Assembly (NCBI GenBank): GCA_964398525.1
Contig: CAYNMS010000001.1
Span: 6,569 to 70,568, forward strand
Direction: 5' to 3'
Length of the DNA: 64,000 bases
Source of the DNA: an uncultured Pseudomonadales bacterium
GTDB lineage: Bacteria; Patescibacteriota; Microgenomatia; UBA1400; CAYNFZ01
The notes under the pieces were generated by a model that was not told the origin of the DNA, did not search any database, and was given only the letters and a program-made list of their open reading frames with translations. The position numbers and the translations under genes are program-made. Below, piece by piece: positions 1,067 to 27,243 of this stretch (its first letter is position 1; each line of letters opens with the position of its first letter).

Positions 1067-1129
1067 GCTCTTTAGCAAGTGAAGAGAAAGATAGCGAGTT
1101 CTTATCGTAATTAGACTTTATCTTTTTAC

Positions 1130-4050
<2,921 letters not shown>

Positions 4051-4327
4051 AGTCAAGATTAAAGTCTGATCTAATAAGACCTACTGGTTTAAAGTTTAAA
4101 AAAACCTTAAACATTTATCTTCTCTTCACTTGTTAAAGAACAAATACTGCCGGGGTATTCCCTCTTGCAGATCCCGTACCGACTCTCTTTTGCTAATCTC
4201 TCTGTAGCCGGACAGCTACTCAATTAGACAATTTATCAAGTCGTCTTGTGGGATTAATGTGCTTCGAGTTTAAAGACTCGCGAAAGCCAATCTTTCAAGG
4301 CTTTAGCCAATCTTCAATTCTCGTTTG

Positions 4328-4400: not shown

Positions 4401-4720
4401 AAGAATTAAAGTGCCGTCAGTTCGCCACAGCCAAGTTGTACTCAACTAAAGCCAACCTATCAACGAACTAACTATTCTTTTTCGCTTATTTTTCCCCTAA
4501 GCGTTGGGATAAATGGATTTGCAACCGCTTTTATACGGTCAGCTGGATTATTCAATCTTAAAAAGTGCTGCTAGAGACCAAGTCCCTCAGGCAGCTTCAC
4601 TCACCATGACAACCAATCAGTGCGGTTTAAGTTTTTTCGGGTTGTCGCTTTCAGTTTCTGCATAAGGTTACTTGGGATCTCTCCAAGCGTACTGTATGTT
4701 ATCACCCCTTATTATTAAAT

Positions 4721-5104
4721 TCAATCCCTGCTCTCCCGCCAATTAGTTTCCATATTTGGCCAGTTCTGATTTCTCAACTCAAGACCTAAACTCAAGTCTA
4801 TAGTTACCCTGTCTCGGCTCAATTCAAATTTCTCAACCAATTCATTCATCGTCACCGCCAAATCATGCCTCCCCTTCAAGATCTTTCTCATCAAAATCAT
4901 ATTAATCCGTGGCTCATCTCCGGTTTTATCCACAACCACCAAACCCACCATCACCCCTTTCAAGTTCAAGTCTGGCACCACCGCCAAAACCCGCCCCTCC
5001 GGTAATTCATTCATGTGGCGTCCTACTTGATTTCTAATCATTTCCTGCCGCTTTTGTTTTCCTTCTCGATCAACAAAAATCATCCTCCCTTTTTTTTCTT
5101 TCAT
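4721..5104 (-). CDS. hypothetical protein (127 aa)
   Basis: Complete ORF with a 4-nt overlap on the upstream csbD-like gene, suggesting an operon. No motif recognised. Confidence 0.45.
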   Translation of the reverse strand: MKEKKGRMIFVDREGKQKRQEMIRNQVGRHMNELPEGRVLAVVPDLNLKGVMVGLVVVDKTGDEPRINMILMRKILKGRHDLAVTMNELVEKFELSRDRVTIDLSLGLELRNQNWPNMETNWRESRD

Positions 5105-5358
5105 TCCAACTCGTCCTCATCATCTTCATCATCTTCAAAATCCTCCCCCAAACTCTCCGCCCAAACGTCCACCTGAGCCTCTGCCTCCTCAAGATCCAAG
5201 TCATACTTTTTCTGGATCATTCCTACCAATTGATCTCTCTTACCTTCAACTTGAAGCAATTCGTCATCAGTCAACTCTCCCCACCTCTCTTTCGCCTCCC
5301 CCTTAAACTCACTCCAATTTCCCCTTATATCGTTCCAAAGGTTGTCACCATTATCCAT
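5101..5358 (-). CDS. CsbD-family general stress protein with polyacidic C-terminal tail
   Basis: KGEAKERWGELTDDELLQVEGKRDQLVGMIQKKYDL matches the CsbD/UPF0337 consensus (KGKxKExWGKLTDDDLxxIxGKRDQLVGKIQExYG). The tail is DFEDDEDDEDELE. Confidence 0.75.
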   Translation of the reverse strand: MDNGDNLWNDIRGNWSEFKGEAKERWGELTDDELLQVEGKRDQLVGMIQKKYDLDLEEAEAQVDVWAESLGEDFEDDEDDEDELE

Positions 5359-5492
5359 ATCATCTCCTGTTAACTGCTATTTCTCATAGCCTAATCTCCC
5401 TTTGTCGCTAATTGGTCAGAATTAAGTTAAATTTTGGTAATAAACCTTTTTCTTTCGTCTTGTCCTTGATAGACTATAGGCAAGGAGTTTTT

Positions 5493-19540: not shown

Positions 19541-21044
<1,504 letters not shown>

Positions 21045-21802: not shown

Positions 21803-22498
21803 CTACCAGACTAAAATGGTCGCCACCTCAGCACAACTCTTTCCTTCCTGCCCCTCCGTCGTCACCCACACGTTATAAATTCCTCTTTCATCTGCTTCCA
21901 CTCGATCTCCATTCCTCCATTCCTTTTCTCCCGTCGGACCAATCACTTTAATTCTCGTGTCGTCTGCAAATTGTCCCGTGCCGTCGTGAAACGACCCCAC
22001 TCTAAACTCCTCCCCCCTGTCTAATTCCAGGTATTGTCCCCAATCAGTTTGCTCATCAGGTTGCACTCTAGCCTGAGTACTCCCATATTTACACTCTGCT
22101 ATTTCACTCGGATACGCTTCTACTTCAACACTCGCCCACTCCATACAGTTATCCCCCCACTGTCCCTCCGTCGTCACCCAAATCCGATACGTCCCAGGTC
22201 TGTCAGCCCTAATTGTAGCTTCATTACTCGAGAAATCATGCACTCCTGGGCCCAATACAATTATCCTGGTGTCATTGGCAAACTGCCCTGTCCCATCATG
22301 AAACGAACCCACTCTAAAACTCTCACCTTGTCTAATCCTAATCTCCCTCTGCCAAGGCTGGCTAATGCTCTGCTGTACTCTTGCCTGAGTCGAGCTATAG
22401 TTACACCCCACCGCCCCTACTTCCGATCCCACACTCAAGCCTGCCAACAACAATCCAAGCACCAACCCCAAACTCAATATGCCTTTTATCTTCTTCAT
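21803..22498 (-). CDS. secreted protein built from two tandem ~100-aa repeats (beta-rich)
   Basis: ATG at 22498 has GGAAG 8 nt upstream and opens a signal peptide (MKKIKGILSLGLVLGLLLAGLSVGSEVGA). Two internal repeats share SSTQARVQ...FRVGSFHDGTGQFAxDTRI.V.GP...WVTTEGQ.G..C.E.A. Confidence 0.5.
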   Translation of the reverse strand: MKKIKGILSLGLVLGLLLAGLSVGSEVGAVGCNYSSTQARVQQSISQPWQREIRIRQGESFRVGSFHDGTGQFANDTRIIVLGPGVHDFSSNEATIRADRPGTYRIWVTTEGQWGDNCMEWASVEVEAYPSEIAECKYGSTQARVQPDEQTDWGQYLELDRGEEFRVGSFHDGTGQFADDTRIKVIGPTGEKEWRNGDRVEADERGIYNVWVTTEGQEGKSCAEVATILVW

Positions 22499-22565
22499 AC
22501 TAACTTCCTCTGCCCGCAAACTCTAACAAACAAACCACTACCCATCAAGCTTTTTTACCGTTTTC

Positions 22566-24574: not shown

Positions 24575-25036
24575 CTATTCTGACTTTCCCTCTTCATGGG
24601 TCTTTTCACTCTTCCAGACATCGCGGCCTTTAGCCCGCTGACCTTCAATCTCATTTTCCGGATCATACATCACCACAAACTGTTTCAAATCCTTTCTTCC
24701 AATCAACATCGGCAAGTTCATGTGTGTCCTATCCACCACACTCGCCAATGAATTTACCTCAATCCCTCTCATCCAAAACTTTACCTTAATTACTTCCCTT
24801 ATCTGGTTTATTCCCAAAGAACTCCGGTAATGCCTTGTAAACACCACGTTTTCTTCCTTCAATAAACCCAATTTCTCAGCCAGACCCCGATCCAAACTCG
24901 TCCGATAAGCTCCTGTATCCACTTTCGCATCAACCAAATGTTTTTTATTGTTTGAGTCTTGTACTTGAACTTGCTCAAACACTCGCACCATTTTTCTTCG
25001 GTGTAACACTCGACTAAAAATATTTAAAACTTTCAT
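24575..25036 (-). CDS. stand-alone retropepsin-like aspartic peptidase domain protein (RimK-associated 'ATP-dependent zinc protease'/DUF785-like)
   Basis: DTG catalytic signature (KVDTGAYRTSLD). Clear paralogy to the C-terminal domain of the upstream ATP-grasp protein (VIDTGLYRTQIDKDLAAKLGLL vs VDTGAYRTSLDRGLAEKLGLL). 1-nt overlap with that gene. Confidence 0.55.
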   Translation of the reverse strand: MKVLNIFSRVLHRRKMVRVFEQVQVQDSNNKKHLVDAKVDTGAYRTSLDRGLAEKLGLLKEENVVFTRHYRSSLGINQIREVIKVKFWMRGIEVNSLASVVDRTHMNLPMLIGRKDLKQFVVMYDPENEIEGQRAKGRDVWKSEKTHEEGKSE

Positions 25037-26316
25037 TATTTCGTTACCTCCGGATTCACCAAAAACCCTTGCAGATCTAGCCTTCCCACCACCAACTTTA
25101 TTTTATTCTGACTTCTTGAAACTACCGATGCCGCCGACACCGTCTTCCTGCCGCGAATATAAAACACAATCTCCACTACTCTCTGCCTCCCTTTCTTGAG
25201 AGTCCTCTCCCAAAGTTCATGTTCTTCACCCAGTAGTCCTAGCTTTGCCGCCAAATCCTTATCAATTTGGGTCCGATACAAACCAGTATCTATCACCGCC
25301 ATCAGTTCGTGTCGCTTCTTTTCACTATCCAGTAAGGCTACCTCCTCCTGCGCTCCAATAATCGTTATTCCCTCATCCGCTTTCACCTTATCTGCAAAAC
25401 TCTCCGCAAACAGTGCTTTCCCCACTCTTACTCCATGATCCACATTCCTGACACGCAGTCCCTCCACTCTCTCCAGTCTCCACTTTAGCCCCGCATCATT
25501 AGCAATTTGGATTCCCAATCCCGGACTGGCATTTAATTCTACTACCATCGGGCCTTTATCATTGTGTAACAAAATATCCACTCCACAAAACATCAATCCA
25601 GTTGCCTCAGCCGCCGCCACCGCCGTTCTCAAAATTGACGACCACAAAGGAATTTTCAATCCATTAAGCTTCCTTCTTGTCTCCGGCACATACCTCACTC
25701 TGTTGCCGTGTTGAACTCCTTTTAAGGTTACTCCCGTCCCCACATCTATTCCCACTCCAATTGCTCCCTGATGCAAGTTAGCTCTACCTTCAGATTCCTT
25801 GGTCGGTAGTCTTAACATCGCCATTACCGGCACTCTATTAAATACCAACACTCGAATATCCGGCGTTCCACTGTAAACATACCGTTTAAACTTAGGGTGT
25901 CTCGGCACCCTTTCCTCTACAAAGGCTTGATGCCTCGTTCCAAAAGTACTGTACTGTCCTTCCAAAATATCACTAATATGCAGTTCCAAATCCTGTCGAC
26001 TCAAACGCTCTCCATCCACATCGAGCCAGCTTTCTTTCTCTGGCAACTTCTTTTTGATTATCAAAATACCCTTACCCGCACTCCCAGATGAAGGTTTTAT
26101 CACAAAACTCGTCTCTATTGTCTCAAAATCAAATCCTTTCACTTCTTCCATTGTTTCAAACAATCCATACAGTTTAGGCACCGATACTTGAGCCTGTTCT
26201 AACATTTCTTTGGTCATCAATTTAGAATTGGCTATGTCCACCGCTTTGTCTGCATTCAAAGACTTATACAATTTCTGTCTAGCATTTAGACCCAAAATAT
26301 CTGCCGGTTTGGCCAT
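25036..26316 (-). CDS. RimK-like ATP-grasp ligase fused to a C-terminal retropepsin-like (DTG) domain
   Basis: ATP-grasp motifs FVIKPSSGSAGKGILII, DIRVLVFNRV, RANLHQGA and GVDILLHNDKGPMVVELNASPGL closely parallel RimK (GVDLL...GPLVMEVNSSPGL). The extra C-terminal ~120 aa carry the DTG motif. Confidence 0.7.
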   Translation of the reverse strand: MAKPADILGLNARQKLYKSLNADKAVDIANSKLMTKEMLEQAQVSVPKLYGLFETMEEVKGFDFETIETSFVIKPSSGSAGKGILIIKKKLPEKESWLDVDGERLSRQDLELHISDILEGQYSTFGTRHQAFVEERVPRHPKFKRYVYSGTPDIRVLVFNRVPVMAMLRLPTKESEGRANLHQGAIGVGIDVGTGVTLKGVQHGNRVRYVPETRRKLNGLKIPLWSSILRTAVAAAEATGLMFCGVDILLHNDKGPMVVELNASPGLGIQIANDAGLKWRLERVEGLRVRNVDHGVRVGKALFAESFADKVKADEGITIIGAQEEVALLDSEKKRHELMAVIDTGLYRTQIDKDLAAKLGLLGEEHELWERTLKKGRQRVVEIVFYIRGRKTVSAASVVSRSQNKIKLVVGRLDLQGFLVNPEVTK

Positions 26317-26328
26317 ACCACCCTCATC

Positions 26329-27243
26329 TTAATCTAGTAAACTTCTAAATCGCCAATACTCCATTAATCTCAAACCGGAAAACTTCCCCAAAAAGATATT
26401 AAATATCGCCACTATCAAAAGCACCGCCTCAGTATTCAAAAGCACAAACAACTGCACCATTTCCAAATTCATCACAAAATAAGCCACCACCGCCAACAAC
26501 AAAGTTTCCAAAGTCATTTCAATCGCCTCATCCCTGCTTCTTCTGGATTGTACTTCCATAAATGTCTCAGCCAACAAAACCATCAATAAAATCGGAAAGA
26601 TCGACAGCTGCGTCAAGTCGTTTAAATTCAAGTACGGTGCCGCCACCAATAAAATCACTACCCATAAAGTCACTGCCCAAAGCAGCAATGACGTCCTGGG
26701 TAAATATGGTAGTTTCAAACCCCTGATTAGCATTCTAGCCAAGGTTGCCACCAGGATAATACTAAAAATTAAAATAAACCCCGTCGTAATTCCCGTTGCC
26801 AATAAACCAATAGACACAATCGCTGGCGTAAAAATTCCAAATCCTCGTAGTCCAATCAAGTGTCTAGACGCCGCAATCATCGCCGTCACGATTGGAAACA
26901 TCAACAAAAGTACAATCGTGTTTGCCGGCACTCCCGCCATTACTGCTGATCGAATCGACCATCGCAAAAAATTAGTTATCGAGAATTCCCCCACCGGATG
27001 TGTCAGAATAAACTGAGCTAACTTTCCCCTTGTTTCTCCTTGAGTCTCAGTCAAATCACTGCTTCTTTCGGTAATTCTCTTCACCACACCACTGGCTGTC
27101 GCCTCCATGGCCGCTTCTGTCGCCTCCTGAGCTTCTAGATCTGTATCAGGTGATGGCGAAATCACTACCCCTTGGGCATTTGCCTCCCCTACACTCCTAC
27201 CCAACAATCCCAACAAAAAGCCCACGATTATTAGTTTCTTCAT
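26329..27243 (-). CDS. membrane protein with signal peptide, ~60-aa acidic periplasmic segment and ~6-7 TM helices (RimK-associated?)
   Basis: MKKLIIVGFLLGLLGRSVGEANA signal peptide, then multiple hydrophobic helices. Sits immediately upstream of the ATP-grasp gene on the same strand. Confidence 0.45.
   Translation of the reverse strand: MKKLIIVGFLLGLLGRSVGEANAQGVVISPSPDTDLEAQEATEAAMEATASGVVKRITERSSDLTETQGETRGKLAQFILTHPVGEFSITNFLRWSIRSAVMAGVPANTIVLLLMFPIVTAMIAASRHLIGLRGFGIFTPAIVSIGLLATGITTGFILIFSIILVATLARMLIRGLKLPYLPRTSLLLWAVTLWVVILLVAAPYLNLNDLTQLSIFPILLMVLLAETFMEVQSRRSRDEAIEMTLETLLLAVVAYFVMNLEMVQLFVLLNTEAVLLIVAIFNIFLGKFSGLRLMEYWRFRSLLD

Follow-up and report, generated by a model that had tools for sequence, protein, structure and literature searches.

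Rlo systems, whose genetic characterisation dates only from 2025 (Lormand et al., mBio 2025, PMC12239564), combine RloC, a cytoplasmic ATP-grasp protein, with RloB, an inactive transglutaminase to which seven transmembrane (7-TM) helices are joined, and with RloA, a secreted retropepsin-like peptidase that cleaves runs of at least eight Glu residues. Residues K46, D48, R114 and R137 of RloA bind poly-Glu and their mutation abolishes cleavage (PMC12239564). In Pseudomonas, a mutant without its three rloA genes is relieved of its defects when rloB or rloC is deleted as well, implying that the ligase and the membrane protein make what the peptidase removes, and the cell-shape, beta-lactam and hypo-osmotic phenotypes of rlo mutants hint at a defective cell wall (PMC12239564). 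Of the RloB sequence hits, 96% are proteobacterial and rlo has been proposed to be an adaptation advantageous to the Gammaproteobacteria (PMC12239564). We report the analysis of a three-gene locus in a 64,000-nucleotide stretch of contig CAYNMS010000001.1 (hereafter the window, meaning the whole stretch), whose host, a monoderm-like Patescibacterium of reduced genome, differs from those of rloABC. This locus, in which the peptidase is fused to the C-terminus of the ligase, is probably a Patescibacteria-type variant of Rlo, in which an acidic peptide would be synthesised by a membrane-docked ligase and trimmed in the cytoplasm.

The RimK/RimB pair, an alpha-L-glutamate ligase and a poly-Glu-specific endopeptidase, is the other close point of reference, and within this pair RimB both binds RimK and stimulates it (JBC 2025, PMC11957791). 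In the RimBK hybrid of Desulfotalea (DP2392) the RimB peptidase lies N-terminal to a true RimK, and some genomes carry an extra free rimB beside rimBK (PMC11957791). The window shares with these systems a cytoplasmic ATP-grasp ligase that is paired with, or fused to, a retropepsin-like endopeptidase. It differs from RimBK in that its peptidase domain is C-terminal (residues 316–426), its ligase is of the RloC type without the RimK N-domain, and the fusion is linked to a 7-TM protein; the Patescibacteria fusion looks like one that arose independently of RimBK. A gene neighbourhood of ATP-grasp, 7TM-inactive-transglutaminase and aspartyl-peptidase proteins was reportedly predicted by Iyer, Abhiman, Burroughs and Aravind in 2009, and is said to be the source of the families PF14397, PF14400 and PF14402. 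The tubulin tyrosination cycle, in which the ATP-grasp ligase TTL is set against the carboxypeptidase MATCAP, follows the same logic of a ligase and an opposing peptidase, by analogy only, and the window contains no MATCAP gene. The kind of system to which the locus belongs is, then, already known from rloABC (2025), from the PF14397/PF14400/PF14402 neighbourhood and from the RimBK hybrids. In our literature searches we found no description of a Patescibacteria form with the peptidase C-terminally fused to an RloC-type ligase, and hence cytoplasmic, nor of a 7-TM partner without the transglutaminase domain, nor of a duplicated free peptidase alongside a decaying fused copy.

Three co-directional and tightly packed genes on the minus strand span positions 24575–27243 of the window, with the following features:

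26329–27243, minus strand: RloB-like 7-TM protein of 304 amino acids (Pfam 7TM_transglut, 3.1e-26)
27175–27243, minus strand: predicted Sec-type signal peptide, residues 1–23 of the 7-TM protein, cut at ...ANA/QG (sequence reading, hydropathy and charge count)
26332–26388, minus strand: conserved cytoplasmic C-terminal tail motif of the 7-TM protein (conservation across partners)
25036–26316, minus strand: whole fusion gene, 426 amino acids (open reading frame)
25402–26316, minus strand: RloC-type ATP-grasp ligase domain, residues 1–305 of the fusion (ATPgrasp_ST, 4e-67)
25039–25371, minus strand: fused retropepsin-like domain, residues 316–426 of the fusion (39% identity to the free peptidase)
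24575–25036, minus strand: free retropepsin-like aspartic peptidase, 153 amino acids (Pfam Zn_protease, DUF785, 3.7e-8)

The 7-TM gene is separated from the fusion gene by 12 nucleotides, the ATG of the free peptidase overlaps the TAA stop of the fusion by one base (TAATG) with a GGAGG 10 nucleotides upstream, and a further 30 nucleotides lead to mnmA. These open reading frames are real genes and not chance occurrences, since the fusion protein has more than 5000 database relatives, nearly all of the best 120 being full-length (about 414–451 amino acids), and since the three-gene order recurs on independent contigs; those of the best 120 that carry names are from Woesebacteria, Pacebacteria and other Patescibacteria. 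A scan for promoters and terminators returned signals at or below chance, which are uninformative on the limits of the operon, and PADLOC found nothing related to defence except a single weak match (E 0.0019). An earlier, sequence-only reading of the window had described a covalent fusion of an ATP-grasp ligase to a DTG domain of retropepsin-like type, a stand-alone paralog of this domain in the next gene with a one-nucleotide overlap, and a secreted-type multi-TM protein upstream, and we find all of these where it had placed them. The GVDILLHNDKGPMVVELNASPGL motif of the ligase occupies residues 245–267 of the 426-amino acid protein and the DTG residues 343–345; the 153-amino acid protein is 39% identical to the C-terminal domain of the fusion over 107 amino acids (E 2e-20); and the upstream protein begins with a signal-like segment that precedes some seven hydrophobic helices. 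No repeat between the two peptidase copies was found at the DNA level, which argues that the duplication is old.

The ligase domain had been taken for a RimK-type enzyme, and so much of this holds that its ATP-grasp core is RimK-like; strict RimK identity does not, because another family fits far better. The fusion matches Pfam ATPgrasp_ST (PF14397) at 4e-67 (226.8 bits, cut-off 31.4) and NCBIfam TIGR02291 ('alpha-L-glutamate ligase-like') at 1.4e-82 (277 bits), and its ligase shares 41% identity (E 9e-71) with the RloC that a canonical rloABC locus of Legionella encodes, whereas its matches to RimK models are weak (PF08443, 1.5e-13; TIGR00768, 67 vs 143 bits; PRK10446, 31 vs 331). In the HMMER alignment residue 21 of the fusion pairs with residue 89 of RimK, and there is no match to the Rimk_N domain in the fusion; since the alignment begins at about residue 89 of RimK, the pre-ATP-grasp N-domain of RimK has no counterpart here. 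Judged by these profile matches, the ligase is of the RloC type (the ATPgrasp_ST/TIGR02291 family) and not RimK proper. The ATP- and Mg-binding residues K74, D247, E260 and N262 are invariant in all 87 homologues compared, and by this conservation the ligase appears competent to bind ATP and Mg. An AlphaFold2 model of the fusion (mean predicted local distance difference test score, pLDDT, 85) has two domains joined by a linker, residues 306–315, that is predicted to be disordered, and the solved structures that best match the modelled ligase domain are RimK, ArgX/LysX and cyanophycin synthetase.

The 304-amino acid protein matches Pfam 7TM_transglut (PF14402) over residues 108–302 (3.1e-26; 92.8 bits, cut-off 25), and the NCBIfam RloB model covers it only at profile positions 296–506 of 508, scoring 70.8 bits where the cut-off is 900. 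With residues 311–503 of Legionella RloB it shares 30% identity (E 2e-18), tail motif included, and it gives no match to the transglutaminase domain PF14400. On these alignments the protein corresponds to RloB's 7-TM half and lacks the inactive transglutaminase domain. That domain is absent from every Patescibacteria 7-TM partner scanned, the external part of which is missing, short or made of PKD domains. The membrane component proposed by the sequence-only reading is a dedicated partner of the ligase, although it is not an unrecognised protein but a member of the known 7TM_transglut family, the C-terminal half of RloB. Its signal-like N-terminal segment, MKKLIIVGFLLGLLGRSVGEANA, which is cut before QG, is followed by an acidic external segment of about 80 amino acids (pI 4.8) and by about seven hydrophobic helices between residues ~105 and ~290, with basic residues in the predicted cytoplasmic loops in keeping with the positive-inside rule; by hydropathy and charge count, the protein ends in a basic cytoplasmic tail. 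The tail carries a motif, G[KR][WYF]xGLRLxE[YI]xRF[RK], that is nearly universal in 91 7-TM partners and occurs also in Legionella RloB (GQYRGYRLLELVRF), and which is a putative docking site for the ligase.

Comparison with the canonical rloA-rloB-rloC cluster on the Legionella adelaidensis plasmid NZ_LR134414 places the window ensemble among systems of the rloABC kind, since both carry the same three Pfam families (Zn_protease/DUF785, 7TM_transglut and ATPgrasp_ST) in one cluster, with the ligases 41% and the 7-TM regions 30% identical. The free peptidase of the window, moreover, keeps the K/D/R/R residues with which RloA binds poly-Glu, and the 7-TM tail motif is common to both systems. The ensemble that had been read as a self-contained tagging and trimming system is therefore of a known rather than an unrecognised kind. 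The differences are several. RloA has a signal peptide and is periplasmic, whereas the peptidases of the window have none and are cytoplasmic; the Patescibacteria peptidase is fused to the C-terminus of the ligase; the window 7-TM protein has a short acidic segment in place of the inactive transglutaminase domain, where other Patescibacteria proteins have nothing or PKD domains; the gene order is B-C::A(-A') instead of A-B-C; and the window's clade has an extra free paralog while its fused copy decays.

To place the locus in context we assembled 80 species-representative loci and 12 metagenomic contigs which, with the window, give 93 loci covering the Woese-, Shapiro-, Collier-, Moran-, Doudna- and Saccharibacteria. 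Record titles were not used for taxonomy because, for many of the GTDB loci, they contradict the Patescibacteria-type content: among L001–L080, many bear titles such as 'uncultured Gammaproteobacteria', 'Pseudomonadales' and 'Bdellovibrionales', with one Methanoperedens and one Fimivivens, so that the titles look unreliable unless the contigs are mis-binned. In 91 of the 93 loci, the window included, what immediately precedes the fusion gene on its strand is the 7-TM gene, and the two exceptions are loci cut at a contig end. The 7-TM and fusion genes therefore form a two-gene core that is widespread in Patescibacteria, which bears out the proposal of a dedicated membrane partner on the very test, conservation of the neighbourhood, that had been suggested for it. 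One or two true RimK-family genes follow the fusion directly in 75 of 91 loci (for example L008, 6332–8123, and L019, 6313–8069; PF08443, 1e-31 to 1e-38), and close relatives of the window also carry an ATP-grasp_4 gene downstream of the fusion. Within the 64-kb window there is neither a RimK nor any second ATP-grasp gene, and the window has lost both the RimK-family and the ATP-grasp_4 genes.

The free peptidase passes the Pfam Zn_protease/DUF785 threshold (PF05618; 3.7e-8, 33.8 bits vs a cut-off of 27), as had been predicted. Its AlphaFold2 model (pLDDT 87) has as its top Foldseek matches in the PDB RloA (9g58) and RloA2 (9g59), followed by DUF785 (2pma, Lpg0085), Ddi1 and HIV protease. The DTG lies at residues 40–42 within a full signature, K38-x-D40-T-G / R80 / R103, whose K38, D40, R80 and R103 correspond to K46, D48, R114 and R137 of RloA; the two Arg residues are 23 residues apart in both proteins, and D40 is invariant in 89 relatives. 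Hydropathy revealed no hydrophobic segment or signal peptide. As to membership of clan AA, the single-lobe fold and the D-T/S-G are present, and a dimer is hinted at indirectly by a protein of a related locus, L088, in which positions 4678–5454 encode a 258-amino acid tandem of two retropepsin-like domains, both halves KxDTG/R/R, as a single-chain pseudo-dimer directly after a fusion whose own domain reads DTR. With both of its halves intact, this tandem fits a homodimeric enzyme.

The KxDTG/R/R signature is present in 74 of 92 fused domains. In the window the fused domain reads V341-x-D343-T-G, Q378 and R401, so that Val and Gln replace the conserved Lys and first Arg, and it keeps the catalytic Asp, the loss of which would have spoken against the original assignment. 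Where a free copy is present, the Lys and first Arg are gone from the fused domain in 12 of 12 loci and the DTG in 9 of 12 (the variants being NSG, NTG, NPT, KTG and DTR), while the free copies show K-x-D-T/S-G and both Arg residues, and their Asp does not vary. Each of the 15 loci in which the fused domain is degenerate carries a further peptidase gene immediately downstream, a free retropepsin in 12 and a MATCAP-like gene in three, as against none of the 77 loci with an intact fused domain. The three are L002 (6250–7242), L003 and L009, where a MATCAP-family gene (PF08014, 2e-24) comes directly after a fusion with a dead retropepsin domain (NTG, without the Lys and Arg), an apparent case of an unrelated peptidase taking its place. 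That the fused domain is replaced by a free retropepsin or, in one other lineage, by a MATCAP-like peptidase supports the notion that the ligase needs an opposing peptidase.

A word-indexed homology search for relatives of the free peptidase found two proteins and an exhaustive HMMER scan 318, mostly of 105–160 amino acids. Profile searching of the 80 representative loci turned up no free copy, and the gene is confined to the window's own clade (12 loci, the window included). The free copies have a mean identity of 34.5% to the intact fused domains of other lineages, compared with 28.5% to the fused domain next to them. Each free copy whose contig was examined directly follows a 7-TM/fusion pair, with or without a downstream RimK. 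We considered whether the free peptidase might be the RimB of a lost adjacent rimK and rejected this because the copies follow the fusion directly whether RimK is present or, as in L088 and L091, is not. The three genes occur together on 11 related contigs, whereas an absence of co-conservation would have told against the earlier reading; the free peptidase itself is clade-restricted and lies outside the conserved core.

Taken together, these observations are probably best explained by a Patescibacteria-type Rlo variant, and we propose the following scheme. The 7-TM protein, its N-terminus outside and its conserved basic, amphipathic tail inside, would be the membrane partner of the cytoplasmic RloC-type ligase, which, on the analogy of RimK and of rloABC genetics, would spend ATP at the membrane in building a peptide or tail that is acidic (poly-Glu-like) and alpha-linked. 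The retropepsin-like endopeptidase would, as a dimer, cut the product of the ligase and so limit its length or amount. This peptidase, secreted in Pseudomonas, would here be cytoplasmic, because it is fused behind a cytoplasmic ligase and its free copy lacks a signal peptide, and its fusion to the C-terminus of the ligase would be the ancestral state. In the window's clade the peptidase domain would then have given rise by duplication to a free gene whose translation is coupled to that of the fusion, with the free copy retaining the full catalytic and Glu-binding signature and the fused copy decaying towards a pseudo-protease; the fused copy of the window retains its DTG and has lost two of the four basic substrate-binding positions. 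The family memberships, the gene linkage, the conservation and decay of residues and the lack of a signal peptide are observed; within this scheme we infer the amino acid that is ligated, its acceptor and the docking on the 7-TM tail, and a physiological role in envelope or osmotic homeostasis is suggested by analogy.

A number of points weigh against this interpretation. A cytoplasmic peptidase is unlike that of the only studied system and therefore the site of cleavage and the role of the 7-TM protein may differ from those in Pseudomonas. The RimK genes found downstream in 75 of 91 loci are missing from the window, and the ancestral pathway may need more ligases than the one retained. The fusion scores below the curated (hypothetical-equivalog) cut-off of TIGR02291 (277 vs 314 bits), 'sugar-transfer associated', the name that Pfam gives to the ligase family, hints that the acceptor may not be a protein, and poly-Glu chemistry is ascribed to RloC-type ligases by analogy. 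The pattern of duplication and decay, finally, represents only two or three independent evolutionary events.

The 7-TM C-terminus was considered as a Glu-ended acceptor resembling S6, but this finds no general support, as only 4 of the 91 partners end in runs of Glu and most end in basic residues, and we keep it as a minor lead only. The 7-TM partners that end in a genome-encoded REEEEE or GLEE are those at L012 2308–3171, L014 4117–4980, L002 3937–4980 and L003 3394–4437, and their tails recall the Glu-ended S6 acceptor of RimK.

If the Rlo variant is accepted, several consequences follow. A stripped-down Rlo module is found in every Patescibacteria lineage sampled, in reduced genomes with few accessory systems, and these loci widen the known host range of Rlo beyond the 96%-proteobacterial picture. 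With all of the enzymatic parts cytoplasmic and covalently joined, it can be argued that periplasmic cleavage is not essential to the logic of Rlo; the 7-TM protein and the fusion make up a compact target, of two proteins, from which the product might be identified biochemically; and the duplicated peptidase, whose fused copy then decayed, illustrates cleanly how in nature a free domain can take over from a fused one. A bolder extension, which we regard as unlikely, is that the Patescibacteria cassette is the ancestral, wholly cytoplasm-facing Rlo machine, which would build a poly-acidic tail on an acceptor close to the membrane, perhaps the 7-TM protein, and trim it again in a reversible manner. 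It is similarly speculative that in such an ancestral Rlo the ligase-peptidase pair, docked on the 7-TM tail, would act as a rheostat of turgor or envelope stress in minimal genomes, and we would place no greater trust in its corollary that in the window's clade the fused peptidase is a pseudo-protease scaffold while the free paralog does the cutting. Were this ancestral reading true, the substrate of Rlo could be found in a far simpler system than Pseudomonas.

Among the alternatives to an Rlo variant, an unlikely one is an envelope amidoligase. Such an enzyme would take a lipid-linked glycan, a precursor of peptidoglycan or of a teichoic-like polymer, or some other polymer of the surface, and join to it either an amino acid or a short peptide, with the 7-TM protein serving as precursor flippase, exporter or acceptor platform and the peptidases regulating or editing the reaction. 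The Pfam description of the family as 'sugar-transfer associated', the cell-shape, beta-lactam and hypo-osmotic phenotypes of Pseudomonas rlo mutants (PMC12239564) and the external PKD domains on some Patescibacteria partners would all be consistent with such a role, as would the class A penicillin-binding protein encoded two to three genes downstream in 26 Moranbacteria-type loci. That last linkage is limited to one clade, however, and neither the window nor the neighbour clusters have a linked glycosyltransferase or polysaccharide gene; the peptidase, furthermore, retains the residues that RloA uses for poly-Glu binding.

It is also conceivable, though distinctly unlikely, that the degenerate fused domain is a pseudo-protease anchor with which the free peptidase heterodimerises instead of working as an independent homodimer, tethering a peptidase or RimB-like regulator to the ligase. 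The fused domain does stay full length despite the decay of its active site, the fusion and free genes are translationally coupled, and RimB binds and stimulates RimK (PMC11957791). Against this, the L088 tandem, with both halves intact, points to homodimers and, since both subunits must each contribute an Asp to a retropepsin active site, the 9 of 12 loci whose fused domain lacks the DTG could form only an inactive D/N heterodimer.

A ribosome-modification pair of the RimK/RimB type is very improbable. In its favour are the RimK-like core (Pfam RimK, 1.5e-13) with RimK among the best solved-structure matches, the fact that RimB is itself a cytoplasmic retropepsin-like enzyme and that fused RimBK enzymes exist (PMC11957791), and the presence in close relatives of true RimK genes two genes downstream. 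The fusion nevertheless scores far below the RimK cut-offs, and better with ATPgrasp_ST/RloC; it lacks the N-terminal ~70–90 residues of RimK, is strictly linked to a 7-TM protein that rim loci do not have, and has the opposite domain order to RimBK. The separate RimK paralogs alongside it in 75 of 91 loci imply, moreover, that the fusion is not their equivalent. No rpsF or ribosomal-protein cluster was noticed among the open reading frames of the window, although no search was aimed at rpsF. A pathway to a ribosomally synthesised and post-translationally modified peptide (RiPP), in which the ATP-grasp enzyme cross-links a precursor peptide, the retropepsin cuts its leader and the 7-TM protein exports it, can be set aside almost entirely, for although ligase, peptidase and membrane protein share one cluster and the maturase PsnB comes up further down the ranking of structural matches, the intervals leave no space for a precursor gene (12 nucleotides, a one-nucleotide overlap and 30 nucleotides to mnmA), no conserved small open reading frame was seen among the neighbours, and the closest families are RloC and RimK and not the RiPP clades.

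Two further suggestions of the sequence-only reading find no echo in our results. A link to DsbA is better described as synteny at the level of the clade than as evidence, the gene being the upstream neighbour in only 12 of 91 loci, and for the possible role in export nothing in the analysis shows that export takes place.

Some minor observations complete the description. The class A penicillin-binding protein of the Moranbacteria-type loci has both transglycosylase and transpeptidase domains (L033, 8998–11385), and its linkage to the cassette may be clade synteny only. In the window, the 23S (1123–4053, minus strand) and 16S (19541–21042, minus strand) rRNA genes are unlinked, lying about 15.5 kb apart with protein genes and a tRNA between them. 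Of the open reading frames of at least 100 amino acids, 52 of 64 are on the minus strand, and the GC skew over positions 1–64000 is very strong and uniform, each 2-kb bin lying between -0.19 and -0.58. Positions 21803–22519 on the minus strand encode a 238-amino acid protein with a signal-like N-terminus and two internal repeats of about 100 amino acids (STQARVQ...FRVGSFHDGTGQFA.DTRI...VWVTTEGQ).

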